From the NCBI GenBank assembly GCA_964106645.2, contig OZ067039.1: DNA of 64,000 nucleotides, one strand, 5' to 3'. The position numbers and the translations under genes are program-made. Below, piece by piece: positions 7,125-60,231 of this stretch (its first letter is position 1; every line of letters starts with the position of its first letter). Origin of the DNA: Podarcis pityusensis. Taxonomy: Eukaryota. The notes beneath the pieces were generated by a model. The model was not told the DNA's origin. It saw only the letters and a program-made list of their open reading frames with translations, and made no database searches.

Positions 7125-7632
7125 GTCTGCCCTTGCATATTTCTCTTTGTCTTAAAAGGAGCCTCGGAGGGGGTGTATAAGTAAACAGTTCCTCTTCCCC
7201 TTGCCAGAAGGACCAGGCTTTGGGGGTAGGGAAGGGGACAGCAAGGAAGCATTGCTACTGATCTGCTTTTGAGGAGATGGTGCCTTACTGGAAACTTTCT
7301 TTCTGTCCCTTTTTTATGTTGCTTCTTGTTTCTGATATGGAAGTACAGGCTTAGGGCGCAATCCTAGCCCTACTTGTCTGAGAACAAGCCCCACTGAAAT
7401 CAGTAAGACTTAGGTCTGTTTAAATATGGTTAGGATTGCAGCCTTAGGTCGCTTGCCTTCCCCACCATTCTTCTGTTTTGGAACAAAGCTAAAGGAGGCA
7501 GTGGGTGAGAAGATTCCCATACTAACTTTTGGAAGAATTGCTCAGACGGCAATTTAAAACTAAAAGGTGTTAAATATTAAAATAATTACAGTGATTGCCT
7601 TAGGAAACGCAGTAATAAAAAAAAGGTACATA

Positions 7633-7864
7633 TAGTGGTATCTCGGGTTACAAACTTAATCCGTTCTGGAGGTCTGTTCTTTGACCAAAGCATTCTTAAC
7701 CCGAGCTGCGTGCTTCCCCTAATGAGGCCTCCCACCCCCAGTGTTCGTCTTCCATTCATCTTCCGGGGCAAAGTGTGCTAACTGGAATACCTATGTCCGG
7801 TTTTGCAGAGTCCGTTGTTCAAAGTGTTCGTTAACAGGACTGTTCGTTGACCAAGGTAGCATTG
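7633..7864. mobile_element. Tc1/mariner-type MITE, degenerate
   Basis: Imperfect TIRs (c/t)agtggtatctcggg ... ccaaggtagcattg flanked by TA. Confidence 0.6.
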
Positions 7865-8152
7865 TATTGTACTCTTTAGAAATGTAGGCACTACATTTAG
7901 AACCTGAGGACTTTGAAGGAAAGATCAGGCAAGCATTGGTTGGCAATACTTTAGGGCAGAGGGTTGGACTGTATGACCAGAATCTCTTCCAATGTGATTT
8001 TTAAAATTCAGTCTGCTGTATATGATTTGCTTATACTGTGGTTGCAACTGCTGTGAGCATGGAGATAACTGTTTGCTTTTAGTGAAAATGCACTCTTAAA
8101 AACAGTGACTAACAAGTGCCCCAGTTATCGGTACTGGTGAATTTGACATTAA

Positions 8153-8407
<255 letters not shown>

Positions 8408-8606
8408 TGAGCAACTGGAATACAAAGCTATTCACTGTCTGCAGTTCTATGCAGAATGGCATATTTGGAATTCCAAAGATTCTTAGTTTTATTATTTGTG
8501 CATGTGTGCTCAGAAACCAGGTGCTGTACTGTTAAAGTGCATCTCAGTACTTGATTATATGAATTTAAATGATCCAGGCATCTCCTGAAAAATGCCATGC
8601 ATGGTT

Positions 8607-8862
8607 AGAAGAAGAAGAAGAAGAAGAGTTTGGATTTGATATCCCGCCTTTCACTCCCTTTAAGGAGTCTCAAAGCGGCTAACATTCTCCTTTCCCTTCC
8701 TCCCCCACAACAAACACTCTGTGAGGTGAGCGGGGCTGAGAGACTTCAGAGAAGTGTGACTGGCCCAAGGTCACCCAGCAGCTGCATGTGGAGGAGCGGA
8801 GACGCGAACCCGGTTCCCCAGATTACGTGACTACCGCTCTTAACCACTACACCATACTGGCT
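8607..8862 (-). mobile_element. tRNA-derived SINE with (TTC)n tail
   Basis: Minus strand head tggtgtagtggttaagagcggt...gggttcgcgtctcc, CORE-like ctgggtgaccttgggccagtcac, (GAA)n on + strand; many CpGs retained, so probably young. Confidence 0.8.
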
Positions 8863-9216
8863 CCTTCAGGTTTGCTCTCAGGCACACCTCCCCCCACTTC
8901 CTACTCTCCTGACACCATTCTGTTCCTTTCCCAAAACATACAAAATGATATACAGTGTGGTCAATGGGGGATATCCAGCTAAGCTGTACTAAGCTTTGTG
9001 CTCTGCACAGCTTATGCTGGGTGCACAATTCAGTGTGTTATCACAGTAATAGTGTGGATATTGCCTAACCTTACTGCAAGTAAGCAACCTGCAGCTAAAA
9101 CAAGTTGTTGTGGAGCTTAATTGGGGGGGGGGGGTTAAGCTCACCTTTAAACTTGTGACTGTTTTACCCAACAGGGCTTTCATAGCTGGTATCCTGATGC
9201 ATAGAAAAAATCATAG

Positions 9217-9342
<126 letters not shown>

Positions 9343-9791
9343 TAAGTAATAATATGGTTGAGATCAAGGCACTTAGGTGTCAGCCATAAAACATAAGGCC
9401 TGCTTTGTGTATTATTCCCCTTATGGTGAAGCAAGAATGGGCAGCATTTATGTCCCTGTCGCAATTCCACATACCCCTGCCCTGTATTATGACAGTGTGT
9501 GGAGCATGGTTGTCTGCAAAGGAACTCTTATGTTTGAGCAGCTGCTTGTGCACGGGGACACCACTCAATCAGGATACCAACACCGCCAGGCATCCCAATT
9601 ACATGCAGCCTCTGTGTGTGAGCGGCAGCTCATGTGTACACCTTTACTTGCAAAGGACCATGCCCAAGCCATGGACATCTGAGGGCGGGGACTAATCCAG
9701 GGCTAATTTCTCTCCCCCCCCAACCCCCCAACAACAACCAGGTTAGGTTTTTCCTGGGACAGCTAACAGTATTGCATACACCTGTTTGCAG

Positions 9792-9930
9792 GAATATCCA
9801 TGTGGATAGTCCATATGACATCAGCCGGGCACCTGATGAACTTCACTACACCTATTTGGACACCTTTGGCCGTCCAGTCATAGTTGCGCACAAGAACAAC
9901 CTAGTTGAGCAGCACATCCAGGATATTGTG
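9792..9930 (+). CDS. RPN1: RPN1 exon 7
   Basis: tttgcag|G AAT...GTG|gtaagc; [29 protein letters not shown]...QDIV. Confidence 0.97.
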
Positions 9931-10208
9931 GTAAGCATAAGCCCTTTGCTTAGATAGCTTAAATAATGAGAAGTACCACACTCATCTTTGCAGCCCAGAT
10001 TGCTCTACAGCAAGTGACATGGCTGCATAAGCAACAGACCACGTTCATAGATCAGTGAAAAGGTGGAGCTTCACTCTTGAGTTCTGATCTGCATCTTAAA
10101 TGTGCAAGTATCTCATTGTTCTTACGTATAGGAATGTAAGGTGGGTAGCATGTCATCTTGACTAATGGAAGTTTATGCTCTTCTCACTGCTTGCCCTGCT
10201 CTTCCTAG

Positions 10209-10337
<129 letters not shown>

Positions 10338-10960
10338 TAGAGGCACGATGAAACAGGGAGGATGTGGCAGGAATACATTACTTGAAATACATTAATTCTT
10401 TGAGTCAATAAATGAGCATGTTGTGTTAGGGCTTACCTTTTTCAAAGCACTGCTAAGATCCAAACTGGCCAAAATTCTTCATCTATTAATTTTCACGGAA
10501 TGAAGTAGATTTTTAAAATGGCGTTTTGGTCCATGTTTTAATTAATTTTGATTCAGTCACGATGGCTTGCACAGTGGATAACATTGTTTTCTTATCGCAT
10601 ACAAGTCTATGCTATGAAGCAAATGGAACTCCTCAGTGTTTCTTGTTTTTGCACTTTGCTGCAAACAATTATTTTGGTAAAGTCTGTCTGATGAATTTAG
10701 CCAGTGTAGTGAATAAGCGACAGAATTGTGAACTAGGAACGCCTTTGGTTTAGATCTTGTCTTCTCCCTTTCAACTCTCTAGATAGACTTTAGGTATGCC
10801 AGTCTCTCTGCCTCAGTCTTTTATTTCCAAGGTGGAGGTTATGCTGACAGATCTTATAGGGTTGTTGTAAGGACTACTGAGAGAGCACACAAAACACTTT
10901 CTGGACACTTAGAATGCACCGTATACTGTAACAAGTATTTAAGCCATTGTGCTTTTGCAG

Positions 10961-11206
10961 GACCCAGCAGCAGAAGCTAGGATGAAAGTTGCCTGCATCA
11001 CAGAGCAAGTTCTCACCCTGGTGAATAAGAGACTACGTCTGTACCGCCATTTTGATGAAGCTGTGAATAAATATAAGCAGTCACGGGATATTTCAAACCT
11101 AAACAGTGGCAAAAAATCACTGGAGACTGAACATAAGGCCTTAACCAACGAAATAGCTTCATTGCAGTCCAAGCTGAAGACAGAAGGCTCTGACTTGTGT
11201 GACAAA
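10961..11206 (+). CDS. RPN1: RPN1 exon 9
   Basis: ttttgcag|GAC...AAA|gtaaga; [17 protein letters not shown]...TEGSDLCDK. Confidence 0.97.
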
Positions 11207-12334
11207 GTAAGAATCCGTTGTCCTCCTTAGTGTGTATTGTTACTGTACTGCCTTTATTCTAAACTGCCTTTTCTCTTGTCATTCCCAAGGCAGATATTTT
11301 CCGCACACTAAATAAATTCTTTTTTGTTGCCTTCGTTCTGTGTTTACAGTGTATCATGATGATTCCAGAATAATACTGCTAAAGTTGAGATTTCTAGGTT
11401 CCTTGATAGTTTTATTTCCAAGCATTCCTCCATAAGGCTGGAGAGCCTTGGGGGAATTTCCCCGTTTTCATTCTGCCATGGCTTTAAATATTGCGCTACC
11501 TGTATAAAATATCTAAACCAGGACTGTCGACTATCCCCGCTTGATGAGATGCATTGGCCAGGGTCCTCCACCACATTCAGCCAAGCCCTTCTCTCAGTGA
11601 GTAGGCCCTGAAGGTAGCAAGTTTGCTCCAAATGTTTTAACGTTGTGTGGGGAATACATCAAGCCCCTCTGGGTGCATTAAGCCTTCTGGCTACCACTTA
11701 CCTAACATGCCTACTGCTTTGAAATGGAATGTTTTTTGAAAGCTGCTGCTCAACATTGGTGAGCGAAGCCTAAGGCATCCTGACCTCCCGATTTTAAGTT
11801 GTATTAATCCTTAGGCACAAATGTGGTCCACGTGTCATTCTCTTAGCAGACTGCTTCTACTCTGCTTTGAGTGAAACTTTCACCCACAATAGGAGATGCA
11901 TTCAGTGGATCTCCCTGGAACTGTTGGTGAATATATCTGTCTTGAAGATGGTCACTTTTGCCAGGATGTCAATGCATAATTTGCAACGGAAGGGCTGTTA
12001 ATGCATTCTGTTCATTAATACTCAGCTGCAGTTAGCTGAAAGCTCCCTTGGTAACTGGGAGGAGGGCTGAGTGGAGGGACTGTGCACACACACTGTAGCT
12101 GTTATCTCTACATATTCCACTGCTGATGTTTTGCTATAAAATGGAAGGAAGGTTAGAAGGCATTTCATTTCTCAAAAACAAAGTATGAATGAAATGTAGC
12201 ATAATCAAGTGCTCTTACTATCATGGAACCAGCACTGACATGTTTGTTGCAGTAAGTGTCCATATTCAGAACCATTAAATGTAAAGTTTAAATGGGTGTA
12301 GCTTCTAACATATCATTGTATAGTTTGCCATATA

Positions 12335-12532
12335 CAGTCGTACCTTCGTTTTCGAACAGCTTAGTTCTCGAGCCCTGCAAAAACCTGGAAGTGACCATTC
12401 CTGTTTGCAAACTATTTTTGGAAGCCAAACATCTGACGGGGTTTCTGCGGCTTCCACGCATTGGTTTTCAAATGTTTTGAAAGTCAAATGGACTTCCAGA
12501 ATGGATTCTGTTCAACTTCAAAAGTACGACTG
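12335..12532. mobile_element. Tc1/mariner-type MITE
   Basis: TA|CAGTCGTAC...GTACGACTG|TA. Confidence 0.8.
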
Positions 12533-12671
12533 TAATTGTTTGCTTAGACCCTGTAAATCTACTACTTCTAGGGTGACCGTAAAAATAAAATGAAAGCACC
12601 CTATTACTGTTGCTTTGTATGGCTATGGTGTTGTCCAGTCACCTAACGTTTTGTCCCAAATTTCTTCCAAG

Positions 12672-12854
12672 GTTAGCGAAATTCAGAAACTGGACAGCCA
12701 AGTAAAGGAGCTGGTCCTGAAATCTTCTGTGGAGGCTGAGCGGCTGGTTGTCGGCAAGCTTAAGAAGGATACATACATCGAGAATGAGAAGATGCATTCT
12801 AACAAGCGTCAGGAGCTGATCACCAAAATCGACAACATCCTTGATGCGCTATAA
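12672..12854 (+). CDS. RPN1: RPN1 exon 10 (last coding exon)
   Basis: ttccaag|GTT...; [18 protein letters not shown]...KIDNILDAL*; TAA at 12852-12854. Confidence 0.97.
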
Positions 12855-14349: not shown

Positions 14350-14363
14350 GCACCAGATGGCGC
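14350..14363 (+). promoter_or_regulatory. CTCF motif (forward)
   Basis: GCACCAGATGGCGC vs consensus CCASYAGRKGGCRS; CpG retained. Confidence 0.6.
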
Positions 14364-16836: not shown

Positions 16837-17430
16837 TTAAAAGCCGACGGGCCTTGTTTTCATCTCTGCTTTCTTGAAGGAGTACTTCTGATTGGTCCTT
16901 TTGTCAACCAGAATGTACCATGTTCCCCAGTAGATGCCGCTGGTCACCCCCGTGTAGCGTCCGTGGTGGTACTTCCCATTGAGGTTGGCTGCCAGGCAGG
17001 AGTCGAACCACCAGCCGGCCCCATAGTACGCACCGCAGTTGCCCATGGGGTAGTTGTCGTTGTCGCTGTCCCAAGTTGTGAAGCACTTGTGATCGTGGTT
17101 GTAGTTGCGGCTGTAGCTCAGGGCATTGCCTGCACTGCCTTGATACTCCCGGGCTGTCAGGCGATACTTGTGGGCCTCGCTGGCCACTTTGAATTTGCGG
17201 TAAACAGCATGGCGCTTGACGCCATGCCAGTCCTCCAACTCTATGCGCACAACATGCTGGCCCAGGCGGGTTAAGCTGTGGAGGTGCTCATTTCCCAGCC
17301 AGTGCTCCCCTTGCAGGCTCCCAAATCCCTGCCTGTACTCCTGCCAAGTGCGGTTGAAATCCACAGAGCCATCCTGCCGGCGCTGGAACACGGTCCACCC
17401 GCCACCATCCGTGACCATGTCGCAGTAAGC
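16837..17430 (-). CDS. FGL2-like gene, last exon: fibrinogen C-terminal (FReD) domain
   Basis: attgccag|GCT TAC TGC; AYCDMVTDGGGWTVFQRRQDGSVDFNRTW...YNHDHKCFTTWDSDNDNYPMGNCGAYYGAGWWFDSCLAANLNGKY...GIYWGTW...KTRPVGF*; the NHD..FTT.D.DND.YP.GNCG.YY..GWWFD.CL.ANLNGKY signature matches recalled FGL2 sequence. Confidence 0.95.
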   Translation of the reverse strand, partial: AYCDMVTDGGGWTVFQRRQDGSVDFNRTWQEYRQGFGSLQGEHWLGNEHLHSLTRLGQHVVRIELEDWHGVKRHAVYRKFKVASEAHKYRLTAREYQGSAGNALSYSRNYNHDHKCFTTWDSDNDNYPMGNCGAYYGAGWWFDSCLAANLNGKYHHGRYTGVTSGIYWGTWYILVDKRTNQKYSFKKAEMKTRPVGF

Positions 17431-18099
17431 CTGGCAATACACAAGACGAAGGTTAATCGGCAGAAGCACTGGAGCACCTGAAAAAGAGCCCTTGCTCCAG
17501 CCCACGGAATCAGGCTGTGACATCATGCTCTCCTAGGAAATTTTCCACTCTGCAGGCAACATCAAGTGCTTAAACAGGTTTAATGGCCTTTGGCTGCTCT
17601 AAGGAACTATTTTCATCAGTGGGGAACAGGGCTAAGGAGCTCCAGAAGTGAATTCTCATTACTCTCACTAAATAACATTTGAAAACCATTCAGATATGAT
17701 TAATGGTAAGTGGCAGAAACTCACCGCCTGCCTGTTCATGCGCCATTTTGGAAATTTTATTTTCAGCAGTTTAGATTTACTTATTTTTGATTCTGTGGTG
17801 TCTGTTCTGTGCAGCATTAGTGCAGGAGTGTCCCATCTGGGCATGTATTTATTTTACTAATTAATCAACTGAGTAGTGGATGTTCCCGTTTTAAGAACCA
17901 CACACTTAGCATTAGGTTTTTGAATTTTCACTGGCTGCACATAATCTTTCTTGCCATGGGGAACATATCTAACCAGGTTTTTTTTTCTTGATAGGGGACT
18001 TTGCAAAGTCCAAGTCTAAAAGGAACTTGGGGACACACTTTGCTCATGGGGAGAGAGGGCCATAAATGCAATGTTAAAAAGGATAATTCTCACCTACTA

Positions 18100-18325
18100 C
18101 AGTGGTACATTGGTTCTCGAATGTCTCCGTTGACAAATGCCGAAAACCCCCGAAGTAAATGCTTCCATTTTCAAATGTGCCTCGGAAGTCAAATGGCTTC
18201 CGCTGTGTGTTTTTCAATTTTCTCAATTGAATTGAGGCTTCTGTATTGAGTTTTTAGTTCTTGAACATTTTGGAACTTGAACGGTCTTCCAGAACGGATT
18301 ACGTTCGAGAACCGAGGTCCCACTG
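18100..18325. mobile_element. Tc1/mariner-type MITE in the FGL2-like last intron
   Basis: TA|CAGTGG..ggttctcgaa ... ttcgagaacc..CCACTG|TA. Confidence 0.8.
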
Positions 18326-18755
18326 TACCACCCTTTCAATATATTTTGATGAGCAGGTGTATGAAGGTTCTAATCTGCATCAATGATGGCAAGGCAGGAT
18401 ATTTACTCCAGATTCATTAATGCAAAGTAAAAGCTGTATGATCTTAACAAGGGAAGCAATCTACAGTGAGTGAGTGGGACTTACTTCTGAGTAAGAATAC
18501 ACAGGATTGCATAGCAGATTATCATTCACAATAGCAATGCAGAGGAGGATGAATAGAGAATGCCCACTTTAGGAGCAAACCAGTGCAAAGTTTATGTATG
18601 GATACAACTTTTACATGCAGTAACACAAACCAGTGGAGCAAGGAGCTGAATGCATATTGCAATTGTGCTACCTTTGGCCGAACAGAGACCCAGTTGGCTG
18701 CATGCATATCTTATTTACTCCATTAGATAAGACACCTCAAACCTACCTACCTTAC

Positions 18756-18877
18756 CTCAAAGTGTTGACGGAGGGGAATGGGTTGGATGGTGTATATCCC
18801 ATTGTCTCGGATGCCCTGTTTATGGATCTCTGCACAATCCCGAGGATACGTGTGCTCAGATTTTTCAGAGGGTTCCA
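18756..18877 (-). CDS. FGL2-like gene, exon 3 (start of fibrinogen domain)
   Basis: tactttcag|TG GAA...TTT GAG|gtaagg; (V)EPSEKSEHTYPRDCAEIHKQGIRDNGIYTIQPIPLRQHFE with the classic PRDC...GIYTI motif; phase 1->0. Confidence 0.92.
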
Positions 18878-20192
18878 CTGAAAGTACATGGGAACATAGA
18901 AAGCTGACTTAGACTGAATTGGACCATAGGTCCATCTGGAAGGCACAGAAAGATGTAATAAACCACAGGGTCCTGGCAATGGAAACAACAGGTCCTGGAC
19001 ATATGACCTGTCTTGCAGGGATCTTTCTGTGATATGGCACCTAGAAACTGTTACACTTATGCTAAAAAGGGGACAAAGAGTATCCTGCAATATGAAGGCA
19101 GGGGCAAGACATACATACTTCTATGAGAGTAGACTTAGATGTTTGGTTGGAAAGCAGAATTGCACCTCCAGAGCAATCTTGGGGCACTGCTGCCTGCTTC
19201 AACATGCTATTGGATATGGCAATCAAGGGAGGTCTCCCCAAAGAGTTAAGAAATTATCATGTTGTTCTGGCCAATGTGTATTGGGCTTCACACACTCAGA
19301 CTGCCTTCAAACATAATGTACAATAGGTGGGTCCTAGGCAGAGGTGGGGAGTTGCATTTGCACACCTGGAGATCCATGTGTGTAAGGCATCATTTTCCTC
19401 CTGTGACTTGACCAATTTGAAGTGCGAAGCCATTTCCTGGCTTCCCCCAAAGCCCATATTTTCTCCTCCTTGTTTTGGCTTCATTTTAAATTGTAACCTT
19501 CTGCACTAAAGCACCATGTATATTGATGGTGTTATATAAAAAATGTGTCATCTTAAGGAATGAGAGACATTGTATATTTAATTAATCTTCAGCTGTTGTG
19601 GTCTAGCATAATTTAATTTGGGTTGCAAGTTGTTTATGTTTATGCTGCCTCTGTTGCAAAGAATATATATATATATATAATCTGTCTTTGTTGTTAAATA
19701 TTAAAAATTAATTATTATATATTTTATTTGTTTGTAAGCCGCTCAGGGAATGTTTATTGAGTGGCTATATAAATACTAAAGGCACTGGAAGCGGTGAGGA
19801 ATATCCAAAGGCTCTTTTGCTGGGTGCAAGTGAGGGCATCCCTTTGCCTTTTTTTTCTTTGAAAAGGTCAGTTTATTTTTTAAAATTGTATTTCTCTCTC
19901 AATAAATGGGATCAATTTACACCAGTTCTTGGGCTGGAGTAAATTTATTCAAAGTTTTGGCGTGCATCTAGGGTACCAAGAAGGATTCAAATCTTTCAGA
20001 CCTAAGCCTTGCTGTCACACTCCTTTGGGGTACACACTGCTCTGACACACACCCTTTGTGGCCTTACTGATGATGGAGTCCCAACACCATCAGGGACACA
20101 AGATTATGGACCATGATGGAGAGAGGGGACCTGGTCTCCCTCTCAGGTTTCATACGATTGTAGTCTAAGTTACATAATAGATTTATACTAAC

Positions 20193-20237
20193 CTGTAAGT
20201 GCTGGTGTCTCCTCAATCTTGTGCTCTTTCCCTATAT
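20193..20237 (-). CDS. FGL2-like gene, 45-nt micro-exon 2 (linker)
   Basis: tatctcccag|ATATAGGG...CTTACAG|gttagt; phase 1-1, open: (D)IGKEHKIEETPALT. Confidence 0.6.
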
Positions 20238-21921
20238 CTGGGAGATAATTTGGAGTCTGTGAGTGAGATTGCTGCAAAGCTCTTGAGAAAAGCCACTGCC
20301 CACTCTATTCTCAATAGTCTGTGACTGAGCTAGTTCAATGCAGTGTTATTATACAGATTTGCTAAGTGTTTGGATAACTTCCCCCAGGCATTAAGGGGGC
20401 TTCGACACAAGGGGGCTCTACATTCCAAGTGGAACATTCAGGTCCATTTTTTTCTTGTGAGTGTCATTGGCGCATGGCCCCCTGCAACACACACCATTCT
20501 TGTTTTTGTTTCTCTTAGGGTGCCTTGGGACTCCCATTATTTTGTGGGATGGATTCAAGCACATACCAGAACCTGAGGTTTGCACAGTTAAGGTGAACTA
20601 AAGGGCTCTGTCACCTTAGGGCAACAAATCTGCTTTTTTTAAAAAAAGAACCAGACTTATAGCAGTTTGAAAAGTGGCAGGGAAGTGCATTGAAAAATAT
20701 GGGATGAACAAACACCTAACAGGAAACACCCCACAAACAAATCAAGATGAATGCAGGCCCAGTGCTCACAAATGTCATCGATAACCACCCCACAAACCAT
20801 GCTCAATAAAGACCTGGATATGAGACAGGGATGGGGAACCTGTGGCTTTCTTGGATTCCAACTTCCATCAGCCCCAGCCACCTTGGCCAATGCCCAGGAA
20901 TGGTGAGAGTTAAAGTCCAATAACACCTGGAGGCCTACAGTAGTTTAAAGTGGGAAACACTGAAAAACACGTTCCTGCATTTCACATCTGAGGACCCAAA
21001 TGTAAGCCCTAGGCATCTAAGGCTGGGAAGTGGATATTTTCTGTCATCAGCAGCCTTCCCTAAGATTTCACCAGCTCTCCTCCCCTGCCACTAGATAGAT
21101 CCAGGAGCCACAGAGTTCCCTGTGTGCAGGCGACGAGATGCCCTGATTTCACAGCATCTGGTGCTACCACTAGCTCTGCCTTTTTGACTCTGCTTCTGGC
21201 AGCAAAATAACTTGGGCAGGCATTGTGCCGTCTGCTCCCATAACAGCGTCTTTGCATCACTGTCCCTCTTGTTCTTCTCTTGCTCTGGTATAATCAGGGA
21301 GGATGTGGAGTGGGAGAGGGCACTATCTGAAGGAAATGATGAACAGGGGGGGGATTGTGTCCAACAGAAAGAATTGCATCATCGGTCAGCCTGATAGCCA
21401 TAAATGTCAGCCGCAAACTCTTCAAACATATTGCTCATCAATATGCTCATCCATCTGTCCGGAAATTCCTGGCGGAACACGGACTGTTGAGATGTCAGAC
21501 ATCAAAAGAGAAAACGAGTGGAACATCTCAAGCAGAAGAAGTGGGGAGGGGGAAGGAAATAATGAAAAATGGTGGAGGAAAAAGCCAGGCAGAGGCGGAA
21601 TGAGGACTCTGAGGGTTTGAAGGCTTTGCCTGTCCTCATTGAACCAAAGTGGGAGACAAGACACATTCACAGGACCACTTGAGTGCATGGTGACTTTGAT
21701 TCAGCAGTGTGGAGCTGGTTAGGTGACTGCTTTGGTGCAAAGCAAGCACTGGAATTTTCTCCATGGTTTATTCTGGCCAGGATGTAGGTTCATGACAATG
21801 CCAAGCTCAGCTCACTTGGTATGTGTGCTAAGTTGACCTTGTGAGACTTCAGCATGGGCTTAAATAGGAATATGACCAAGGGTGGAACAAAGGAGCCACA
21901 GGAAAACACCCTGGAAGCAAA

Positions 21922-22218
21922 ATAAATTAAAACAATTCTTTTAAAAGATAGTTAAAAAGACTCTTCTTAAAAGCCTAAAAACTCCCTTAAAAGAATCAAA
22001 TCTTCAAAAAAGTTATATGATCTAAGAAAGTCTTTAAAAGAATCCTTCCGAAAGAATTAAAAACTTACAATGTAGCACCTTAGAGACCAACTGAGCAGTT
22101 TTAGGTATAAGCTTTCTTGTGTGTGCATGCTTTTTAAGAAGAGCCTTTTTAACTATCTTTTAAAATAATTGTTTTAATTTATTTTGACTATGGCAGACCA
22201 ACGCGGCTACCTCCTTGA
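21922..22218. mobile_element. Penelope-like element fragment with inverted arms and 14-bp TSD
   Basis: accctggaagcaaa at 21908-21921 and 22219-22232; contains gtagcaccttagagaccaac and gcagaccaacgcggctacc, recalled as squamate Penelope terminal motifs. Confidence 0.65.
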
Positions 22219-22531
22219 ACCCTGGAAGCAAATCAAGATGAAGAATAAATGTTCATTGTCATAATAACCGCCTCATAAACAGAATGAGCATTCAGAATGA
22301 ATGCTCAGTAAAGACCCGACATGGTCCAGCCACATCATAAGATTTGCGCAAGGAACCCTGTCTCTTTTTGCCTACCTGAACTCCAGGTGCAGCATGACCA
22401 AAGCAAGGCAAGAGGACTGCCTTGGCGGGGCATGGCCTCCTTCCCTCCCTGCTCAGCACTCCAAGCTCTGTGTAGGGGGCTGTATCCCAGCAGACTGCTG
22501 TGAACTATTTACAAGGCTTTATTTAGAACTT

Positions 22532-22671
22532 CATAGAATTGTAGAGTTGGAAGGGACCACGAGGATCATCTAGTCCAACCCTCTGAAATGCAGGAATCTT
22601 TTGTCCAATGTGGTGCTCGAACCCACAACCCTGAGATTAGGAGTCTTGTGCTCTACTGACTGAGCTATCCC
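22532..22671 (-). mobile_element. tRNA-Lys-head SINE with CR1-like tail (same family as 6457)
   Basis: Reverse complement: ggatagctcagtcagtagagcacaagactcctaatctcagggttgtgggttcgag...gggttggactagatgatcctcgtggtcccttccaactctacaattctatga. Confidence 0.8.
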
Positions 22672-22689
22672 TCTTTTCTCCCAACGAAA

Positions 22690-22925
22690 AATAGTAAAAA
22701 CACAATACAACATCACACACTAAAAACTTCCCTGAACAGGGCTGCCTTCAGATGTCTGTTAAAAATCACACAGCTGATTATGTTTTTGACATCTGCTGGG
22801 AGGGCATTCCACAGGGTGGGCACCACTACCGAAAAGGCCCTCTGCCTGGTTCCCTGTAACCTCACCTCTCACAACGAGGGAACTACCAGAAGGCCCTCGG
22901 AGCTGGATCTCAGTGTCAGGGTGGG
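22690..22925 (-). mobile_element. L2 LINE 3' fragment
   Basis: Encodes RAFSVVVPTLWNALP-type L2 C-terminus on the - strand; same family as 24420, 51025, 52385. Confidence 0.75.
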
Positions 22926-23128
22926 ACTATGGGAATACATAGGATTCCCAGGAGATCTCCCCTCCAGGCACTTGCCAGACAGATCTGCTTAGCTTCAGCA
23001 AGGCTGCTGCACCATGAACCTTCGGATCACACCCCAGCCCAACCTGGACTGTTTGTGAAGAGAGAGAAGAATCTCACTCTTCACAGTCAGGCAGAATGGG
23101 AAGTGGATAACCCCCCCGCTGTACTCAC

Positions 23129-23663
23129 CAAGAATGGATGCCTTCAGGACTGATTCGCTGCAAGGCAGCTTGCAGCCAGAGAGGATCCCCAGCAGCAGGG
23201 CCACCAAGGAGCTGAGCTGCTCCTCTAAGCGGTGCAGATTAAGCCGGCTCTCCTCCTGCAACTTCTGTAGGCCCGATGCCATGGAAACCACTCTGGTTTC
23301 CACCAAGCTGAGTCGGTCCATCAGGGTCCTGGTCCTGGAAGAGCTTTGTTTGTTGAGCTCTCCAGTGTGCTTCAGGATCTGCTTGAACTCCATCCGCTGC
23401 TCGCCAGCAGGGACATCCTGCACCTCCTCAGGTACTGCTGGCTCCTCAGGCCCCAGGACGTGGAGCTTGCAGCTCCCCAACCCATCACAGCCACCTTCCG
23501 GAGAAGGGAGAGGCATGGCCACCAGGGACCCTGCGCATGCTGGGTTGTCATCTCTTTGGCTGCACTCGGGGCTGTCTGAGTTCAGGCTTCCTGACTCTCG
23601 CAGAACCATAAAGAGGAAGCCAAGGCAACAAAAGCACTTGCTGAAGCGGGGGAAGAGTTTCAT
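23129..23663 (-). CDS. Fibroleukin (FGL2)-like gene, exon 1: signal peptide, Cys motif, coiled coil
   Basis: ATG in gaaaATG context; MKLFPRFSKCFCCLGFLFMVL signal-like; GGCDGLGSCKLHVLGP resembles FGL2 GKCEEAGECPYQVSLP; heptad-rich LMDRLSLVETRV...LEEQLSSL; donor CTTG|gtgagt, phase 1. Confidence 0.85.
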
Positions 23664-24419
23664 TTTCTCTCCTTAATGCCTCCCGAGGGGGTGGGAAAGG
23701 CACACGCGACATGCAAGAAGGCACAGGCTGGAAGCTACTGCAACAGAGCTTCTTCTGTCTCCACAGGCAAGCTGCCTCTCTAGGCCGGGAAGGCCACTCC
23801 CAGGCTGGGTCAGGGCAAACTGCCTCGCTGAAGAAAAAGTGTGGAGATTGGGGAGCTGCGAGGGAAAGGAGGAGGGAAAGTAGAGCGGCACACAGATAAA
23901 GGAGCATTTGAGACTGTCCAGCAGATTAGCATGTCATGGGCAATTAAAGCTAGGCCCCTTGTGGGAGGCAGTGATTAGAGTCTGGCTTGAGTGAGCTTTG
24001 CTCTCCAGCAAGAGGGCTTTGACTTGAAAGGCCTGTAATTTGCCTTGACATTAAAGGCACGGAGGAAATCGCCCAAATGCTAGCAAGGGAGCTGAGTAAA
24101 AAGAGCGGTAATCTCTCGCAGTGCTTGCTGGCCTTTGGCACGGCGTGGCCACCCACCCACCACCCATTAAGCAAGGCATGTGCTCAGAGGCCTCTTCACG
24201 CTCCAAGGCCAGAAGGCGTCATGTGCACAGACCTCCCATGCCAGACTTGACAGGCCACTTCACCACTCCCCAGCTTTCCGCAGTTGCACCAACCAACTCT
24301 CCCTCCTTTGGGAACAGCCTGGACCTCAGATCTCTAAGGCCTCAGATCTTTAGAGCGCTTTGATACCACTTTAAACAGTCATGGCTTTTCTCCAAAGAAC
24401 TTTGGGTGCTGTGGTTTGT

Positions 24420-25647: not shown

Positions 25648-25664
25648 GTGCCATCTAGTGGCCA
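25648..25664 (-). promoter_or_regulatory. CTCF motif (reverse)
   Basis: Minus strand TGGCCACTAGATGGCAC, full consensus match. Confidence 0.7.
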
Positions 25665-26920
25665 GAATGCTGCACTGTTCCCCCAGTTTATCTTCAACAA
25701 GCTGTTTAATGTACAGAGATTGGAACATGGTCCTCGTGGACCATTTGGCCCACTTAGCTCTGTGTTGTCTAAACACTCTGGCAGTGGCTGTCCAGGGTTT
25801 TGAGACAGGGAAATTCCCAGGTCTACCTGGAGATTGAAGCTGGGACTTTCTGCAGACAAAGCACGTCCTCTGTCACTGAGCTACGGCCCTTTCAAAAAGG
25901 AATGGATTGAATTATAATGATTATCATGCTTGATTCTTCCATCCAGCTCTCATGTACAGTCTGGCTTTCACGACAACGCCAGTTTCTTTATCACACTCCC
26001 AACACGGAAGACCATTTCACGTGTCCATTTCCCCCAACCATGTGCGGTTGGGAAAAGCGTGCATTTTCCTGGGAACCATTAAAATGATGAAGTACCTGGT
26101 CTTCCCATTGCAGTAAGATGCAGGCCCCAGAAAGGAAGGAAATGAGCAGAGACGGCAGCAAGAGGTGCTACTGTGTGCACACTCCCATTTACTCCACATC
26201 CAGTGTGCTCCCACCTCTGGGTGTATACACCACATTTACTGTGATCCGTTTTTATTCTGTACCTATCCTGTTGTTTCTTATGAAGTTTAGTGCATTGATA
26301 TGTTTTCCCCCAAACCAGCTTTGATCCGAATTGAGTAGAAGAGCAACCCAGCTGTGTTTTAAGCTAGCAACTTGTGCACAGCCTACAGCTGCCTATTAGC
26401 CCGGACCCTTGGCTGTGTGGGCTGGGGCTGATTGTTGTCAGATTGCAATGGCATCTGGAAGTGCCCCATGCCAGCCACCTCTGATTTAACCCAAACAGGT
26501 ATAGCAGTGAGAGAGCAGGGACATCTTGGGGATAGTCCATCATCTAGTTAGGAAGAGGAACCTAAGAAAAGGAAAAGGGTATAGGAGGTACTATGCAACT
26601 CATGCAAACATATGCCAAAGGCTGCTTTACGACTTACAAGCAACAATCTTTTTTATTTATTTATTTAGACAAGAATACATTCACCCAGAAAGGTTCGATT
26701 CTAGGCTAGACGAAAAATCCACAGAACAGATCCAAGAAGGGGAGAGGGAAGACCCAAGCTGCAGCTTCTTATTCATTGCTTAAGGAAAAGGATCTAAGCC
26801 AGTCTTTATGCTGGGGGGCTTAAAAATTACTCTCTTTTTTGGGGTCTAGTCTCACTACAAAGGTTTTGGCTTGTTCTTCAAAAATGTTGAGATTCACAAG
26901 GTGTAGTGGCTTCTGTTTTA

Positions 26921-26934
26921 CCACTAGGGGGACG
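26921..26934 (+). promoter_or_regulatory. CTCF-like motif (forward)
   Basis: CCACTAGGGGGACG, with mismatches at the 3' end of the core. Confidence 0.45.
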
Positions 26935-27912
26935 CACAAATGATCCAATATGGTCATACCAAGTTGGGAAAACATCTAGCCCCCTCTTAGCCAACTTGAT
27001 CAGATTTCTCCCAAATTTCAGCCCTTGACATAAAGCCGCCTGGGGGACTCGTTGCTTCTTTCCTGCACATACAATAGAAAAACAAGAGTGAATAATGGGC
27101 AGTGACAAGGCAGGACATCTTTTTTTTCTCTCTCTCTCCCCACCCCGCCGTCCAATTTGTCTTCGAGGCTGACATAGGAAAAAACCCCAAATTGCCGCTC
27201 TCGCCTTGCACAGTTTTACCACAGTATCCTGAGAAGCATCTGGTGTGGAGCTGATAGCACAGGGGGGGTTCAGGCAGGAGCCCCAGCCGGAAGCCGAAGA
27301 GTTAGCAGCGGTTGGGGACCCACTGCTTCTGCCAGGACGTCAGACAGGAAACCTTACAATGGCTCTGAAGTGAAGGCTCTCTGGATCCCTGCCACTGTCT
27401 GTTCAGAGAGAGGCAGACACACCAGCCTCCCTGCCAGGGACAGCAGAAACCACTCAGAACCATTCCCCGAGGGCCATTTTGTGTGGCTCAACCAGCAAAC
27501 CATTGCGGCCATAGGAAGGCACTTTGGGTAGCTAGAATAGTAAGAATTACCCTCATTATTCCAGCCCATAATCCTTACCCTTATGTGCATAGTGACAGCC
27601 ATGTGCCAAGAACCCAAGAGCATCATGTAGCCTCTTCTCCACATGCCTAGGATATGCTCCTAAGCAGCTGCAGGCATGCGTAGCCTCCCGGGAGGCCTTC
27701 ATCCCATTACGAAAGTCTGTCCAAGTGAAACTTTGAGGAAACAGATCGTTGAAGCAAAATTGCATTCCCTTGAGTTCACCCACCCGCCTCCACTTATTTC
27801 TGAGACCAAGCTCCAATGTGCACCAGAGCCTTGAATGAGAGCACCAAATATGTGCCAGCAGAGCTCAGTGGGATACCCCTGTGTTGCCCACATATCTGTG
27901 TGGAGGAGGAAC

Positions 27913-33603: not shown

Positions 33604-34249
33604 TATCACAAACTGATATGGAGCTGTGGAGAACTGAACTGAAGAAAGAGACACTGACAGATCCACCCATCCCTTGTAATGACTTCACAAGGGGGAGCTG
33701 CAACAAAATGTTATGGCATGGAGGGCTTCAGGAACATAGGAAGTTGCCATTGGTCAGTACTGTCTACACTGGCAGTGGCTCTTCAGGGTTTCAGACAAAG
33801 GACATTCCTAGCCCTGCCTGAAAATGAAAGGGGTTGCATCTGACCTTCTACATGCTAGGCAGATGTTCTGCCACTGAGTTTCCATTTGGCCAGCCATGTT
33901 CTTTTTGTGGATACTTCATCCCCCTGTTTCCTACCCCATGTCAGTTAACATTCCATGCCCACTGTCCTTAGTGGGGTGTTTTTGGGTTGTCCTCCTGCTC
34001 CAAATGCCTCTTAATCTCATTTTCTGGGACTCACAAGCAGGGAGAGGGTTGTTGCTCTAAGGTCCCTCTTGCAGGCTTCCTATAGGTAGCTGGTTTGTCA
34101 CTTTGAGAAATGGATGCTGAAATAGACATGCCTCTGGCCTGATCTAGCAGGGCTTTTCTTATGTTCTTATGCCCCCTTAGGGATTATTCTTTCTCCTAAA
34201 GTCGGTGTGTGCACGCGCTTCTGCACATCTACGCTCTCACACCAAGCCT

Positions 34250-34510
34250 GCTGATACTTCCCTCTGATATGTGGATGTTTCTGTTTTGACTCAGTGAACG
34301 AGTTTTCTATATAGCTTCTCCCTTGGATTGTGGTTTGAACTTGGGTATCACACAGATCCTCGCATCTGGATAATTATCAGAACAGTTGCTGATGCTTCGT
34401 TTGTTGCATCTGGCGAACTAGGCTCCAGCCTACGAAATCTCATGTTGCAATAAACTCTCTATTCTTTAAGGATAACACCTTGCCCCAAAGTGTGCCTGCT
34501 ATTTCCTACT
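34250..34510. promoter_or_regulatory. Candidate haematopoietic enhancer (possible GATA2 distal enhancer orthologue)
   Basis: TGACTCA 34287, TGTGGTTT 34329, CATCTG 34363, palindromic GATAATTATC 34369, CAGTTG 34383, CATCTG 34407, ATGTTGCAAT 34442 and further GATA cores; non-repetitive; ~21 kb 3' of RPN1. Confidence 0.55.
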
Positions 34511-34806
34511 CGGTTGGTGTGTCTGCCCTACTCCCAATGTGTCTTGCTGCCCACATGGGGCTGCGGCATTACAATACAGCCTATATGCATAAAAGACGGC
34601 TGTGTGCAGGGCAGTTGCTTGCGGGGTCAACGCAAGGCCTGCAGCTCAATGGTAGAGCATCTGCTTTGCACACAGAAGCCCCCAAGTTAAACCCCTGGCA
34701 TCTCCAGCTAGGGCTGGGAAAGAATTCTGCCATGAAGCCCTGGAGAGCTGGTGGCATTCAGGGTAGGCAATACTGAAGAAGGTAGATCAATGTTCTGCTT
34801 TGGTAT

Positions 34807-34943
34807 CATGGGCGTAGTCAAGGGGGGCAGGAAGGGGCAGCTGTCCCTATCAATAAAAATCAATAACAAATACATAGCTAACTGAGGTTCTGCCCCCCCC
34901 AACAAAAGGCCTGCCCCCCCCCCAAATACTGGTTATGGCCATG
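34807..34943. mobile_element. hAT MITE inserted in a tRNA-SINE
   Basis: TIR catgggcgtag/ttatggccatg; TSD tttggtat/cttggtat; SINE tail resumes afterwards (cagcttcctat). Confidence 0.7.
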
Positions 34944-35345
34944 CTTGGTATGTCAGCTTCCTATTAAATCCAGTAACTGGCTCTGCAGTTTGGTCCTGTT
35001 TCAGTTGGATTTTATGCGTGTAGGCTGCATTCCAATGCTACGTCCCTTGCATGGACTTTGAGACACATTGGAAGTGGCACAAGCATATCAGGTGGGAATG
35101 GGAGACAGGTGTTCTCTTGGCTACCTCACATGTACGGGCTGAACCTGGGGAGAGGAATCATCTGATCTACCTTTTAAAAATGCATGGAATCGATCCTAAT
35201 GAATACCCTGCTTACTCCTTCCTCCCTCCCCCCCCAAAAAAGCCTTATGGGCAGATGTTTTGTATTAAGTAAATTCTGCCTCACTGTCCTGTTTCTGCGA
35301 TTTCACTCTCATAAGAAGGCTAGCTTTTGCCGTGAGGCCTGGCAG

Positions 35346-35359
35346 CCACTAGATGGCCA
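35346..35359 (+). promoter_or_regulatory. CTCF motif (forward)
   Basis: cagCCACTAGATGGCCA. Confidence 0.6.
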
Positions 35360-46774: not shown

Positions 46775-48829
46775 GAATGGGATGTGCTTATGTGTGAATA
46801 GACTGAAGGAGGGGAGGTGTGGGGGAAAGGGAAGGGATGGGGGTGGAGAGGGTGGTCTCCACCCACTTTTGGTTCTGGCCCAGCCCACAACTGGCATGTG
46901 ACCCCCTGAGGGAATGTGGCCATTTTGGATGGAGAAAGCTTTCCCACTTCTGATGTGTGCACACCTACTGCATGTAAATCTCATCAGACATAACAGGACT
47001 CACTTCCAAGTATAGGATTGTGCTGCAGTTGATATGATGACTTGGCCACTGCTGAATCTCTAAAAAGCAGGGGTGGAGGTGGTAAGGGAAGGAGAAGAGT
47101 TAAATATACCATATCTCCTAACCTTGTAGGAGAGGGGAGTGAATCCTTTCCTTCCCCACATTAATCTTTACAGGCATGGTCCCCCTGGTAGGACCCCGTG
47201 AATAGAAATAACTTATCTTCAAAGGGTGGTGATGGAGAATTCAGCTCCCCATCCCATCCACTCTGCTGCACTTTAAAAGTACATACACACACACACAAAA
47301 CTTGGTCTTGCCCTGCTGAGTTGCACTGCATGTGCTGAGTGTGGTGTTGTGCTTGGAGTCCTGGACCTGGGGGGACCCATTTTCGAATCCCCACCCCACT
47401 GGGTGACGTTGGGTCACTCGCTATCTCCCTCGGCCTACTTCACGGGGTCGTTGTGAGGAGAAAAACAAAAGGCGGCAGAACTTTTGGGTTTGTTAGACTT
47501 GTGCTTGAAAGGCTGGACTAATGGAACTTAAGAAGGGGAACGTAGCGCTGGCCTCACGCCTCCAGATGCCCTGGCCTGCCTTCATGAGAAGGAAGCATGC
47601 CCAGCTCCCGGCCTGCTTGTTTTTGCCCAGTGTTGGGAAAGCGGAGAGCGAAGTGACTGGGCCAATCAAAGAACAAAGCGTCCCGTGCCAAGCCGGCTTT
47701 CAGGCCGGCTATCGTTGCACAAGGGCTTTCAACTGCGTGTCACTGGGAGTCGCCTTTGATGCGACTCAAATAGCCTTCTCTCTCTCTCTCTCTCTGCTCT
47801 CCATCCCCCCGCATGCCGTCGCCCCCGGCCCCTCCCCGATGTCTCTCTGGCACTCACAGCCCTGCAGCACATTTGAGGCAAAGAATGTATCCTGTCACCA
47901 CGGCTGCTTCCCTTTATTTGAAGTGTCTCACGGAGCTATCTCCCAATGACATGCTTCTTTCAGTGAGAATTATTTCCCCCCTGCTTCTATCTGTCAGTGT
48001 GGGTGCGTGTCCCCCCCTCCCCACAACTGTACGCCTTGGGCCTCCGTGCTCCCTGGATGTCCGAGCAGGTGTGAAGACAGGCTGGCCCTTTGTGCAGAAG
48101 ACTCTTCCTCAAACCTCCCCCCCCCTTCCACTGGACTCCTTCCAAGGCTGTCACTTTTCTCTCTCTCTCGCCTCCGTCTTGTTTTTCAACGGAGCGCGGG
48201 GCTCGCTTCTCCTGTCACCTGGGCCGAGGCTGTGCAGCCGTGTGCTGCCTCTAATCTTGCCTTCCACAAAGGGCATTCCTGTCACTCCAGGGAATTGGAG
48301 GCATACCTGAGCCCAGGCCTTGGCAGATAGCGCAGTGCCCTCGGCCGCAGCTAGGGGGACCCTGCCAATAGCCTGGGGAAGAGGCTGGAATTCGGAACCA
48401 TGTCAAACCCAAGAGGAGTCTCCGGTCTGGGTGGTGGTGGGACATCTTCAGTGAGCAGAGAACAGATACTTTTCTTTTCCCCCCTTTTTAATCTTTGGCT
48501 TCTGATTGCTTTATGAGCCTGTGGGAGGTTTGCGGTTTCTTTTTGGGGCCTACAAAATTCATTCATGTGAATCTATTGGCTTCTGTGCATGTACATGCTT
48601 TACATGCAGAAGATTGCTGGCTCCACCTTCGGCATCTCCAAGAAGGGCTGTCAAAGGCCCCTATCTGAAACCCTGGAGAGCCGCAGTCAATTGGGGTGCA
48701 GACTAGGGGTGGGGGACTCAGTAGAGCAGGTGATAATGCCCGTTCCCCTTCTCTCACTCTACTGCATCCTGATAGACCGACTGCTGTGAGATGGCACTTG
48801 AGGGAGAAGGAAATGTACATTGCATAGAG

Positions 48830-53663: not shown

Positions 53664-54440
53664 GTACATCAGGAAAGGGGAGACTGTGCCCCCCCCCCAA
53701 ATGTCAGACTCCAACTCTCAGGAGCCCCAGCCAGCTTGCTCAGTGATCAACGATGATGAGAGTTTTCGCCCAGCTCCTCATCCTGTGTCACATAGACACT
53801 GAAACTGTTCTGTGATTTCTACCTGTTTCAGATTATGGGTTAGTTTACAGTTAGTTTTTTTTTGACATCCCTTTCTTCCCAGGCAAATTAAATATTTCTG
53901 AGGCCCAGCAAAACTGTGATTGTCATTATAAATATTATAACATTGTTATCAGCTAGAATGTGGGGAAAATCTGACTTTGCAAGTTGCATTCTACAGGCAT
54001 GCAGATAACAAAGTTGTAAGTCAGGGATGACTCAGCTGTAGTCATTATCATAAAAAGGTTTGATTAGTGAATTAAAATGTAGGCTCACTCCGCCCTAAGA
54101 AGTCACAACTTCCTCACAAAGAGCCCTAGGAATTGTAGGTCTACATCTTCAGGGAAGCTATGATTGTTAAACCAGTTTGAAAACTTGTTTATATTTGTGC
54201 ATTACACAATTTTTAAATTGTGGTTCCTGTTTTCAAAAGGAAACATTTCCTCTAATTCCCATTCTGTCTCCTCAGATGGTCTGATGCAGAATTGTCTTTC
54301 AGTACATGATGCACACATCCTAACCTCTCTATGTATCTAGACGATAACTGCATTCCTTTTAAATATCTTCGCAATAGATTCTCCCAAAGCAAAATGAGAG
54401 CCCGGGATGGGTTAGATCAATTTCATGACAAGCAAACATG

Positions 54441-54936: not shown

Positions 54937-55136
54937 NNNNNNNNNNNNNNNNNNNNNNNNNNNNNNNNNNNNNNNNNNNNNNNNNNNNNNNNNNNNNNNN
55001 NNNNNNNNNNNNNNNNNNNNNNNNNNNNNNNNNNNNNNNNNNNNNNNNNNNNNNNNNNNNNNNNNNNNNNNNNNNNNNNNNNNNNNNNNNNNNNNNNNNN
55101 NNNNNNNNNNNNNNNNNNNNNNNNNNNNNNNNNNNN
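54937..55136. other. Assembly gap (200 N)
   Basis: Run of N; true length unknown. Confidence 0.99.
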
Positions 55137-58067: not shown

Positions 58068-59057
58068 TGTGTGCACCTGTTATAGCTCTCTGAAAAAACA
58101 GACAGTCTGCAAATGCAAATCTCCACATAACATTTTATGCATATTAAACTTATTCCTTTAACACTATTCACATCAGCACAGCTTCCATTTGTTTCTGTTT
58201 GTGTACACATCAGGAGGCATTGACCAGGTGGGTTTCAATGTCTTTCCCCTATTTAAAGGTGTCTTTAGCATGGCTAGGGACATGTTAGCAATAAGGACTC
58301 CAACTGATGTGAAGCTGATTTGGAAAACAATGCACCAAACAGCAGTGCCTTCTAACAAAGTACAGGTTGTAAGCATTTTGTATAATTTTGTGTGAACACA
58401 GGTTGAAAACCCAGCACTGGAAATGCAGTGAGAGCATAGTAAATAGGAATGTCAACACAGCTTTAGTATTCCTCTCATGTAAGCTTTGCTGCATCCCATA
58501 TTACAGGCCAAATTATTGCAGATGTTGCATTTTGCTTAAAAAAATCTATATGTGCTTGGATATTAATTACTAGGTCTTTATTTTGTAGAATATAATTGCT
58601 TAGTCTTCAGGGTTTACCTTGGGGCACATTTTGTACTTTTAGGACCAGAACTATTGGCGCATGGTCAGCATAGGTCATTGGTTGGATGCAAATATGTTCG
58701 ATTAAAGATTCTTGATTAGGTGAAGTTATCAATATATCTATCTCATATTAAAATATTTTTAATGGAAAAGTTATCAATGAATATGAATCATGAGAGAAAA
58801 AGATACAGTTTTTAGTTTTGGGGTGGTAGAAGATGCATCTATTAAGATAGTTATTATTTAGCGCTATTATAAAATGCTTTTGTAATGTTCCTTTGAAGGC
58901 AGATCTATTTTGGTTTTATTGTATGCTTTTTTGCTGTGAACTTTTTTGAGATATATATATATTTACAACACAGCGGCATACCAGTATTTTTTATAAATAT
59001 ATATAATGAAATAATAATAATAATAATTTAGTTTATATAGTTCTGTGATTAGTATTA

Positions 59058-59170
59058 AAAGGTAAAGGGACCCCTGACCATTAGGTACAGTCGTGTCCGA
59101 CTCTGGCGTTGCGGTGCTCATCTTGCTTTATTGGCCGAGGGAGCCAGCGTGCAGCTTCCGGGTCATGTGA
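59058..59170 (-). mobile_element. Sauria SINE, 5'-truncated
   Basis: aaaggtaaagggacccctgaccattagg...cagcttccgggtcatgtg. Confidence 0.88.
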
Positions 59171-60128
59171 CTCACCAGAGTGACTCAGGTGTTTGTGGCA
59201 CAACACCCACCTAATCCAAAAAATGAAATATTTTTCCAAAAAGCAAAATTGCTTCCTCAGACAAATAAATTTATCTTGAGTTAAATCAGATAAGTAGGAA
59301 ATCAAAAAAGCAATTAGTATTTTTTTCAAATTGAAAATATACTGATCCGTTTATCATTCAGTGTTCAAAATGGATGCATGTTTTTGACATATATAGCTTT
59401 CAATCTCGGTTCCTTGATGAGATAGAAATTCAGGGAGCGCACAGAATGCGGACTCAGCCCCACTTCCTCAGAATCTTGTCTTGCCACATCTCTGCCTCCG
59501 GCCACTGCTGCTGACGTTACCGGCCGTTGGCAATGACACTGCCTCCTCTCCCAGGTGTGCCTAGTTACCCACAGCTCCCTCCTGGTTTCTTGGGCTTACT
59601 GTTATATGCTGGAGCGGAGACTGAAACAGAAGAGATGAAGCTCTTCACCTCTTCCTTGCATCTCGCATCAGTGTCTCATTTTCCATAGGCACACACGTTT
59701 GGAAGCCACTGCGGGCTAGAGGCTTCCAAAAACGAGTATCCAAGGCAAAACGTGTGCTTGCTTGTCACACATTATGGCAGGGATAGCCAACCCGGTGCCT
59801 TGCATTATGGGGTGCACGGTGTAAATATCTTTCCCTACACTCTGTGTAGATGAAATGTCATCTGTGAAGTAATTCTACAGCTCATGGACAGAGGGGCAGG
59901 AGATGACTGCCTTATATTAGATTATTTCAAGGAAGCCATAATTACTGTAGTGTAGTATTAATGCCAATTCTTTTCACATCAGAATAAATGGAGGGAAATT
60001 CTCCCTGACTTCAAACAGCAGCTAGGGCTGCGTTATCACTTGAAATTTCTCTGTCCTGCTGCCATTGAAGCAGGCTGTACTGCATTCTTCTTTCCTTGCT
60101 CGCCACAATATTGTCTGATTCTTGGTGA

Positions 60129-60231
60129 TATTGCATTGTATTGAATTACATGGCACTCTGCAGTATTGTATTGCATTTTTATTGTATTGCATTGCATTGT
60201 CTTGCATTGTGCTGAATTGCAGGGCATTGCA
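60129..60231. repeat. Degenerate (ATTGY)n pentamer repeat
   Basis: attgcattgtattgaattac...attgtattgcattgcattgt. Confidence 0.85.

Follow-up and report, generated by a model that had tools for sequence, protein, structure and literature searches.

A candidate lizard orthologue of the GATA2 distal haematopoietic enhancer behind RPN1 in Podarcis pityusensis

The stretch of Podarcis pityusensis DNA analyzed here (64,000 nucleotides of contig OZ067039.1, termed the window herein) begins inside exon 1 of RPN1 (ribophorin I), which is located on the plus strand (positions 1 to 12,854) with its 5' end cut by the window start. RPN1 was recognized by its Pfam family (PF04597, with an exon in 5,367 to 5,903), and the other exons were found from translations; the stop codon lies at 12,852 to 12,854, and AATAAA polyadenylation signals are present at 13,223 and 13,540. 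Behind RPN1, on the minus strand, lies a fibroleukin-like fibrinogen-domain gene (16,840 to 23,853; Pfam PF00147) with coding exons at 23,853 to 23,124, 18,887 to 18,753, and 17,481 to 16,840. The candidate enhancer body, a repeat-free island of ∼310 bp (34,180 to 34,492), begins 21 kb downstream of the poly(A) signal of RPN1, a distance that shrinks to ∼14 kb when the intervening gene (7 kb) is subtracted. The corresponding distance in mammals is 12 to 16 kb, and the position of the island 3' of RPN1 agrees with an expected distance of roughly 10 to 20 kb. GATA2 coding sequence was absent from the window (best tblastn E value of 4; no zinc-finger pattern), and by analogy, GATA2 would be expected 77 to 117 kb away, i.e., outside the window. 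Mouse and human share the order Rab7-Rpn1-Gata2 (Paliwal et al., PMC3757050), and the RPN1-GATA2 linkage reaches zebrafish and fugu (Yang et al., PMC1988811).

Further features were observed along the window. Some 1 kb after the poly(A) signals of RPN1, there is a one-mismatch forward CTCF motif (14,350 to 14,361); a strong CTCF site is also described directly behind human RPN1 (PMC3757050). The stretch from 26,919 to 27,362 is CpG-richer and contains a one-mismatch forward CTCF motif (26,921), an E-box-GATA composite (27,237), a RUNX site, a MYB-type site, and four ETS sites; it may serve the fibroleukin-like gene, as its promoter or an enhancer, or may be another enhancer active in blood. 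At 53,930 to 54,242, an AP-1/NF-E2-like site overlaps an E-box and RUNX and ETS sites are adjacent, and this could possibly be an erythroid-type enhancer. A GC- and CpG-rich unique stretch without a recognized gene (47,500 to 48,450; 38 CpGs, observed/expected ratio [o/e] of 0.48) may be a weak CpG island or have a regulatory role, and several more unmasked tiles with raised CpG o/e (0.53 to 0.72) lie in 58,800 to 61,700, together with two stretches of four WGATAR sites each (58,726 and 59,271). A 200-base run of N (54,937 to 55,136) marks an assembly gap, which makes order and distance beyond it less certain. Rfam searches of the window returned three tRNA-like repeats only.

The first-pass annotation, made from the letters alone, had described the intervening gene as an extra gene after RPN1. 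The gene is real (95 to 98% identical in tblastn to the Podarcis raffonei protein P0001, named "fibroleukin-like"), but it is an old vertebrate gene rather than a lizard insertion. It is the orthologue of fish si:ch211-157b11.8, and the best 120 of 380 matches include relatives from lizards, alligator, amphibians, lungfish, coelacanth, ray-finned fish, and lampreys. Among the named matches (best 120 of 380 and best 120 of 280), mammals, birds, snakes, and turtles were absent, in a search whose sensitivity is limited by its word index. Judged by these relatives, the gene appears to be of ancient vertebrate origin and to be missing from this locus in mammals. In the catfish Bagarius yarrelli, one gene model (P0117, named "GATA-binding factor 2") joins the fibroleukin-like orthologue to a GATA protein. 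This is most simply read as an annotation fusion of neighbouring genes and, as one record, would support an old linkage of the fibroleukin-like gene with gata2. In this model, the fibroleukin-like part precedes gata2 in the same orientation, whereas the lizard gene would be antisense, which suggests that one lineage or more has undergone an inversion or rearrangement. The RPN1-GATA2 block may have lost a bystander gene more than once.

The island is bordered by repeats on both sides. On the left is a tandem 8-mer on the plus strand (34,156 to 34,171), presumably the 3' tail of a retroelement. On the right is an old element (34,493 to 35,107; nhmmer E value of 1e-6) with inverted arms at 34,493 to 34,601 and 35,003 to 35,107, whose local score was 60, compared to a maximum of 29 among 300 shuffles, and with a tRNA-derived SINE inside it (34,635 to 34,706). 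Self-blastn and nhmmer found no second copy of 34,190 to 34,530 in the window, save for the arm starting at 34,493, so that the description of the candidate as unique sequence stands within the 64-kb window. Other identities for the island were rejected. All six frames are closed in 34,100 to 34,700 except for one 127-codon stop-to-stop frame, which starts at 34,393 and runs on through repeats, and a coding exon was therefore discarded. A structured RNA was discarded on the basis of the island having no Rfam match and a fold z score of 0.68, and a tandem repeat was likewise dismissed as the identity of the island. With no in-window copy, no Rfam match, and no stable fold, the island has the marks of neither a transposable element nor a noncoding RNA.

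String matching placed all the motifs of the first-pass annotation in 34,250 to 34,510 where it had put them. From left to right, the island contains two weak GATA-like sites on the plus strand that are not WGATAR (TGATAC at 34,252 and TGATAT at 34,265; 34,252 to 34,270), an AP-1 consensus TGACTCA (34,287 to 34,293), a RUNX consensus TGTGGTTT on the plus strand (34,329 to 34,336), and a weak GATA-like site GTATCA (34,345 to 34,350; TGATAC on the minus strand). An E-box CATCTG (34,363 to 34,368) then directly abuts, with 0 bases between them and thus in non-canonical spacing, a 10-bp GATA palindrome, GATAATTATC (34,369 to 34,379), which occurs once in 64 kb. The minus-strand half of this palindrome, TGATAA (34,374 to 34,379), is the sole strict WGATAR of the island, and the plus-strand site reads GGATAA. 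There follow a MYB consensus CAACTG on the minus strand (34,383 to 34,388; CAGTTG on the plus strand), which is also a CANNTG, and a near-E-box CATCAG on the minus strand (34,389 to 34,394), which is located 9 bases ahead of TGATAA, with the MYB site within the spacer, and which differs from CATCTG by the base at 34,390. A second E-box CATCTG (34,407 to 34,412), a C/EBP-type site ATGTTGCAAT (34,442 to 34,451), and a weak GATA site GGATAA on the plus strand (34,470 to 34,475) complete the series. Two of the motif assignments were weakened upon closer inspection. The C/EBP-type site is present, but a stricter pattern misses it, and it counts only as the half-site TTGCAA (34,445); likewise, the six GATA-containing sites are all there, but only one of the six, that at 34,374 on the minus strand, is a strict WGATAR (three are GATAA, and all six contain the GATA 4-mer).

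Counted to the G of GATAA, the E-box-GATA spacers are 0 and 4 bases, and a pattern search found no canonical CANNTG-N8/9-WGATAR composite in the island, the window's only one being located at 27,237. No ETS pattern (MGGAAR) was found inside the island. An ETS site at 34,502 and a MYB-type site at 34,610 fall in the inverted-arm element; they were rejected as enhancer parts because this repeat-like element holds both. A further observation concerns 34,353 to 34,394, where the GATA palindrome is flanked symmetrically by two one-mismatch E-boxes (CAGATC on the plus strand and CATCAG on the minus strand), both 10 bases from the G of GATAA, an arrangement that may be due to chance.

The clustering of motifs was compared with chance using textbook IUPAC consensus strings, not database matrices. 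GATA 4-mers were more frequent than expected (6 versus 2.2; P = 0.017 in 5,000 shuffles of the stretch). With the first seven patterns used, the stretch contained six of the seven motif classes and tied with another at 53,991; once the C/EBP pattern was relaxed, it was the sole 260-bp interval with all seven classes, which none of 100 shuffles of the region from 24 to 54.9 kb matched. The latter result leans on the post hoc relaxation and on the ETS site at 34,502 in the repeat arm, and the seven-of-seven score was rejected as main evidence for these reasons. Across 15 combinations of motif set and width, P values ranged from 0.05 to 1.00 (60 shuffles each), with values up to 1.0 for wide windows or the strict C/EBP pattern. 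When the 50 kb behind RPN1 was ranked by tightest span, the island came first in five of six motif sets, with P values per set of 0.04, 0.06, 0.08, 0.495, 0.10, and 0.295 (200 shuffles). Its core of RUNX, E-box, WGATAR, and MYB sites is packed into 60 bp (34,329 to 34,388), compared to 97 to 155 bp for the next tightest groups. At least three strict WGATAR sites were found in 10 other 257-bp stretches of the window. Given the range of P values and the first rank in five of six sets, the cluster is real and the best of the window, and on motifs alone, it is only moderately beyond chance.

Three further signals coincide with the cluster. The CpG o/e (∼0.6 for the island) was 0.61 at 34,200 to 34,520, an interval picked around the finding, compared to 0.24 for the intergenic region (24.5 to 54.8 kb), and there is no CpG across the 600 bp directly upstream of the island; among 300-bp tiles, values this high were found in 1.0% of the 579 that are mostly unmasked and in 4.4% of all 774. 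The near-composite CATCAG-N9-TGATAA (34,394 to 34,374) is the only CANNAG-N8/9-WGATAA in 64 kb on both strands, with an expectation of 0.0017 per 260 bp on one strand; a looser pattern, expected 0.013 times per 260 bp on one strand, has three further matches in the window. Given the strand of human RPN1, the orientation of the near-composite would be equivalent to the plus strand in human. Finally, the CTCF motif that had been reported ∼0.9 kb downstream was confirmed as a CTCF-type consensus 12-mer on the plus strand (35,346 to 35,357), 0.87 kb beyond the last motif, which points away from RPN1 and towards the presumed GATA2. An identical 12-mer on the minus strand (25,650 to 25,661) points to the fibroleukin-like gene and RPN1. 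Two exact 12-mers compare with 0.085 expected per 31 kb, and at least two were found in 1.5% of 200 shuffles (P = 0.015). In the human genome, a strong CTCF site is described just behind RPN1 with a sequence that is not conserved even in mouse (PMC3757050), and we therefore do not equate it with either exact lizard site. The reverse and forward sites (25,650 and 35,346) diverge around the candidate, which, following the CTCF orientation rule, would be the arrangement expected at a loop boundary. CpG retention, the CTCF pair, and the near-composite are separate signals at one place and add weight to the cluster.

The mammalian GATA2 distal enhancer is known for being hijacked in one leukaemia. 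The mouse −77 element is located close to Rpn1, and its region, which is conserved across vertebrates, contains conserved GATA motifs; its core of 257 bp (mm10 chr6:88,116,954-88,117,210) was deleted together with several WGATAR sites, and its E-boxes are in non-canonical spacing to GATA without a canonical composite (Johnson et al., PMC4643771). The lizard island is of similar size, is near RPN1, and also has E-boxes beside GATA in non-canonical spacing and orientation with no canonical composite. It differs in having one strict WGATAR and five weaker sites, compared to several WGATAR sites in mouse; the function of the mouse element was shown by deletion, and that of the island is putative. 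The human element (G2DHE) is described as a 755-bp bimodular core, with GATA2, TAL1, PU.1, and IKZF1 motifs on the telomeric (RPN1) side and MYB, RUNX1, and CEBPA mainly on the other, and with reported PU.1, IKZF1, and FLI1 sites (Kiehlmeier et al., PMC8550965). Its core has been given as hg38 chr3:128,603,426-128,604,425, and the hijacked allele is MYB dependent (Vriend et al., PMC12628035). The human element is described as lacking a composite, and one A-to-T change makes a CANNTG 8 bp before (W)GATAA (West et al., PMC10587712); a blood-trait variant has been published at chr3:128,322,617, given with no motif detail. Passages of PMC8550965, PMC10587712, PMC4643771, and PMC10550934 give motif descriptions and coordinates of the element and no sequence, and no element sequence appears in those of PMC10635615, PMC8479123, PMC2936534, PMC10553128, PMC6484780, PMC12932927, and bioRxiv 10.1101/2025.09.11.675740.

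Compared with this published description, the lizard island shares with the human G2DHE (−110/−117 kb) the location behind RPN1, the set of GATA, TAL1-type E-box, RUNX, MYB, and C/EBP motifs (MYB, RUNX, and C/EBP at 34,383, 34,329, and 34,445, the last as a half-site only), and the lack of a canonical composite. It resembles the human element further in a near-E-box that a single A-to-T change would complete, albeit with a spacer longer by one base. The human element, too, is said to hold a GATA palindrome, reportedly mentioned by Smeenk in 2021 in the paper on the MYB site, which is not used as evidence here. There are also differences. The lizard spacer is 9 bases and the human spacer, in the published description, 8; the island has no ETS site, unlike the human element, and an extra gene lies between it and RPN1; the RUNX site is on the RPN1 side, whereas human RUNX1 is mainly on the GATA2 side; and a single island of ∼310 bp stands against a bimodular core of 755 bp, the place of the second module being taken by repeats in the lizard. 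By analogy, the island would correspond to the RPN1-side module of the human core, and the human-type second module may have been lost, displaced, or be mammal specific. Two other Gata2 elements, +9.5 and −1.8, also resemble the island in GATA and E-box content, and −1.8 has a palindromic double GATA (PMC2936534). However, +9.5 is intronic with a canonical E-box-N8-GATA composite, neither of which applies to the island, and −1.8 is promoter proximal with another palindrome spacing; identity with either is impossible, since RPN1 ends 21 kb before the island and the 30 kb that follow contain no GATA2 exon.

Taken together, we consider it fairly likely that the GATA/TAL1 module of the distal haematopoietic enhancer of GATA2 (mouse −77, human −110/G2DHE) has its lizard orthologue in the island (34,180 to 34,492). 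Orthology is probable because the island fits the mammalian element in where it lies, how long it is, which factors its motifs suggest, and how its E-boxes are spaced (non-canonically), and because it has the near-composite; motifs, CpG content, and CTCF sites were read from the window. The orthologue reading of the first-pass annotation thus agrees with the enhancer-like anatomy, the position behind RPN1, and several published mammalian features, and agrees less well with the single strict WGATAR, the lack of an ETS site in the island, and the spacer that is one base longer than in human.

The island could instead be a blood enhancer of the lizard GATA2 domain other than the −77 orthologue, which would then be the cluster at 27,050 to 27,362, the cluster at 53,930 to 54,242, or a sequence outside the window, or would be mammal specific; we regard this as unlikely. 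The 27.2-kb cluster has RUNX, E-box, WGATAR, MYB, and ETS sites within 97 bp, ranks first in the ETS-containing set, has a CpG o/e of 0.47, and is separated from the poly(A) signal of RPN1 by 14 kb, which is comparable to the distance in mammals. However, it contains a canonical CANNTG-N9-WGATAR composite, which is stated to be absent from the mammalian element, along with a single GATA site, and it lacks a C/EBP site. With three strict WGATAR sites, an E-box, an AP-1 site, a C/EBP half-site, and RUNX and ETS sites, the 54.0-kb cluster fits the description of several GATA motifs, but it is 41 kb away, at 35% GC (where GATA sites are cheap) and a CpG o/e of 0.10, and has no MYB site within the stretch. 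The near-composite is absent from both clusters, and the island beats them on most features.

That the island is neutral unique DNA, or an old unrecognized repeat, in which short motifs cluster by chance seems quite unlikely. An equally tight cluster arose in 4 to 50% of the shuffles of 31 to 50 kb, a share that varied with the motif set, most of the GATA sites deviate from the consensus, and repeat status was judged within the window only; against this, CpG retention, the CTCF pair, and the near-composite coincide at a place preceded by 600 bp with no CpG. It is very unlikely, in our view, that the island acts as an upstream enhancer not on GATA2 but on RPN1 or on the fibroleukin-like gene, from 10 kb 5' of the latter's coding start. 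No gene is closer to the element than the fibroleukin-like gene, whose 5' end is turned towards it, and C/EBP and AP-1 sites would suit a secreted fibrinogen-domain protein, but the reverse CTCF consensus at 25,650 stands between this gene and the element, and the 27.2-kb cluster is a nearer candidate for it. As for RPN1, mouse Rpn1 is reported to be indifferent to GATA factors and to relocation of −77 (PMC4643771).

From the motifs, the island, its CpG retention, the CTCF consensus sites with their orientation, and the flanking genes, all directly observed, we infer orthology, factor binding, looping, and the target gene. The orthologous enhancer would work as a GATA-switch-type progenitor enhancer. 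In blood progenitors, GATA2 would bind the palindrome, and E-box, RUNX, MYB, and C/EBP factors the sites around it; a loop to GATA2 past the 3' end of the window would start from the forward CTCF site, 0.9 kb further downstream, and the reverse site at 25.65 kb would seal off the fibroleukin-like gene and RPN1. A broader reading that joins these parts is tentative and, on balance, doubtful: ever since mammals and reptiles parted, the enhancer would have stayed one base short of an E-box-GATA composite, the base whose change leads to GATA2 overexpression disease in a human family would correspond to 34,390, with MYB in the spacer, and the divergent CTCF boundary would let the enhancer ignore the ancient fibroleukin-like bystander gene, later lost in mammals (and perhaps in birds, snakes, and turtles).

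In the portions of the open-access literature available, no description of a lizard or chicken orthologue was found, and public genome alignments may already show one. The accepted working model of the enhancer is unchanged, and its conservation "among vertebrates" is already in print (PMC4643771). If the joint reading is true, the enhancer would be deliberately submaximal and dose tuned, and the lizard island would be a natural minimal version for testing the motifs in normal and hijacked use. If the orthology is confirmed, the GATA palindrome, the flanking E-boxes, the spacer MYB site, and the near-composite would have survived since the amniote split, and the ETS sites and the second module would not have. 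The lizard sequence would then be a phylogenetic footprint of a disease enhancer that would aid the reading of human variants.
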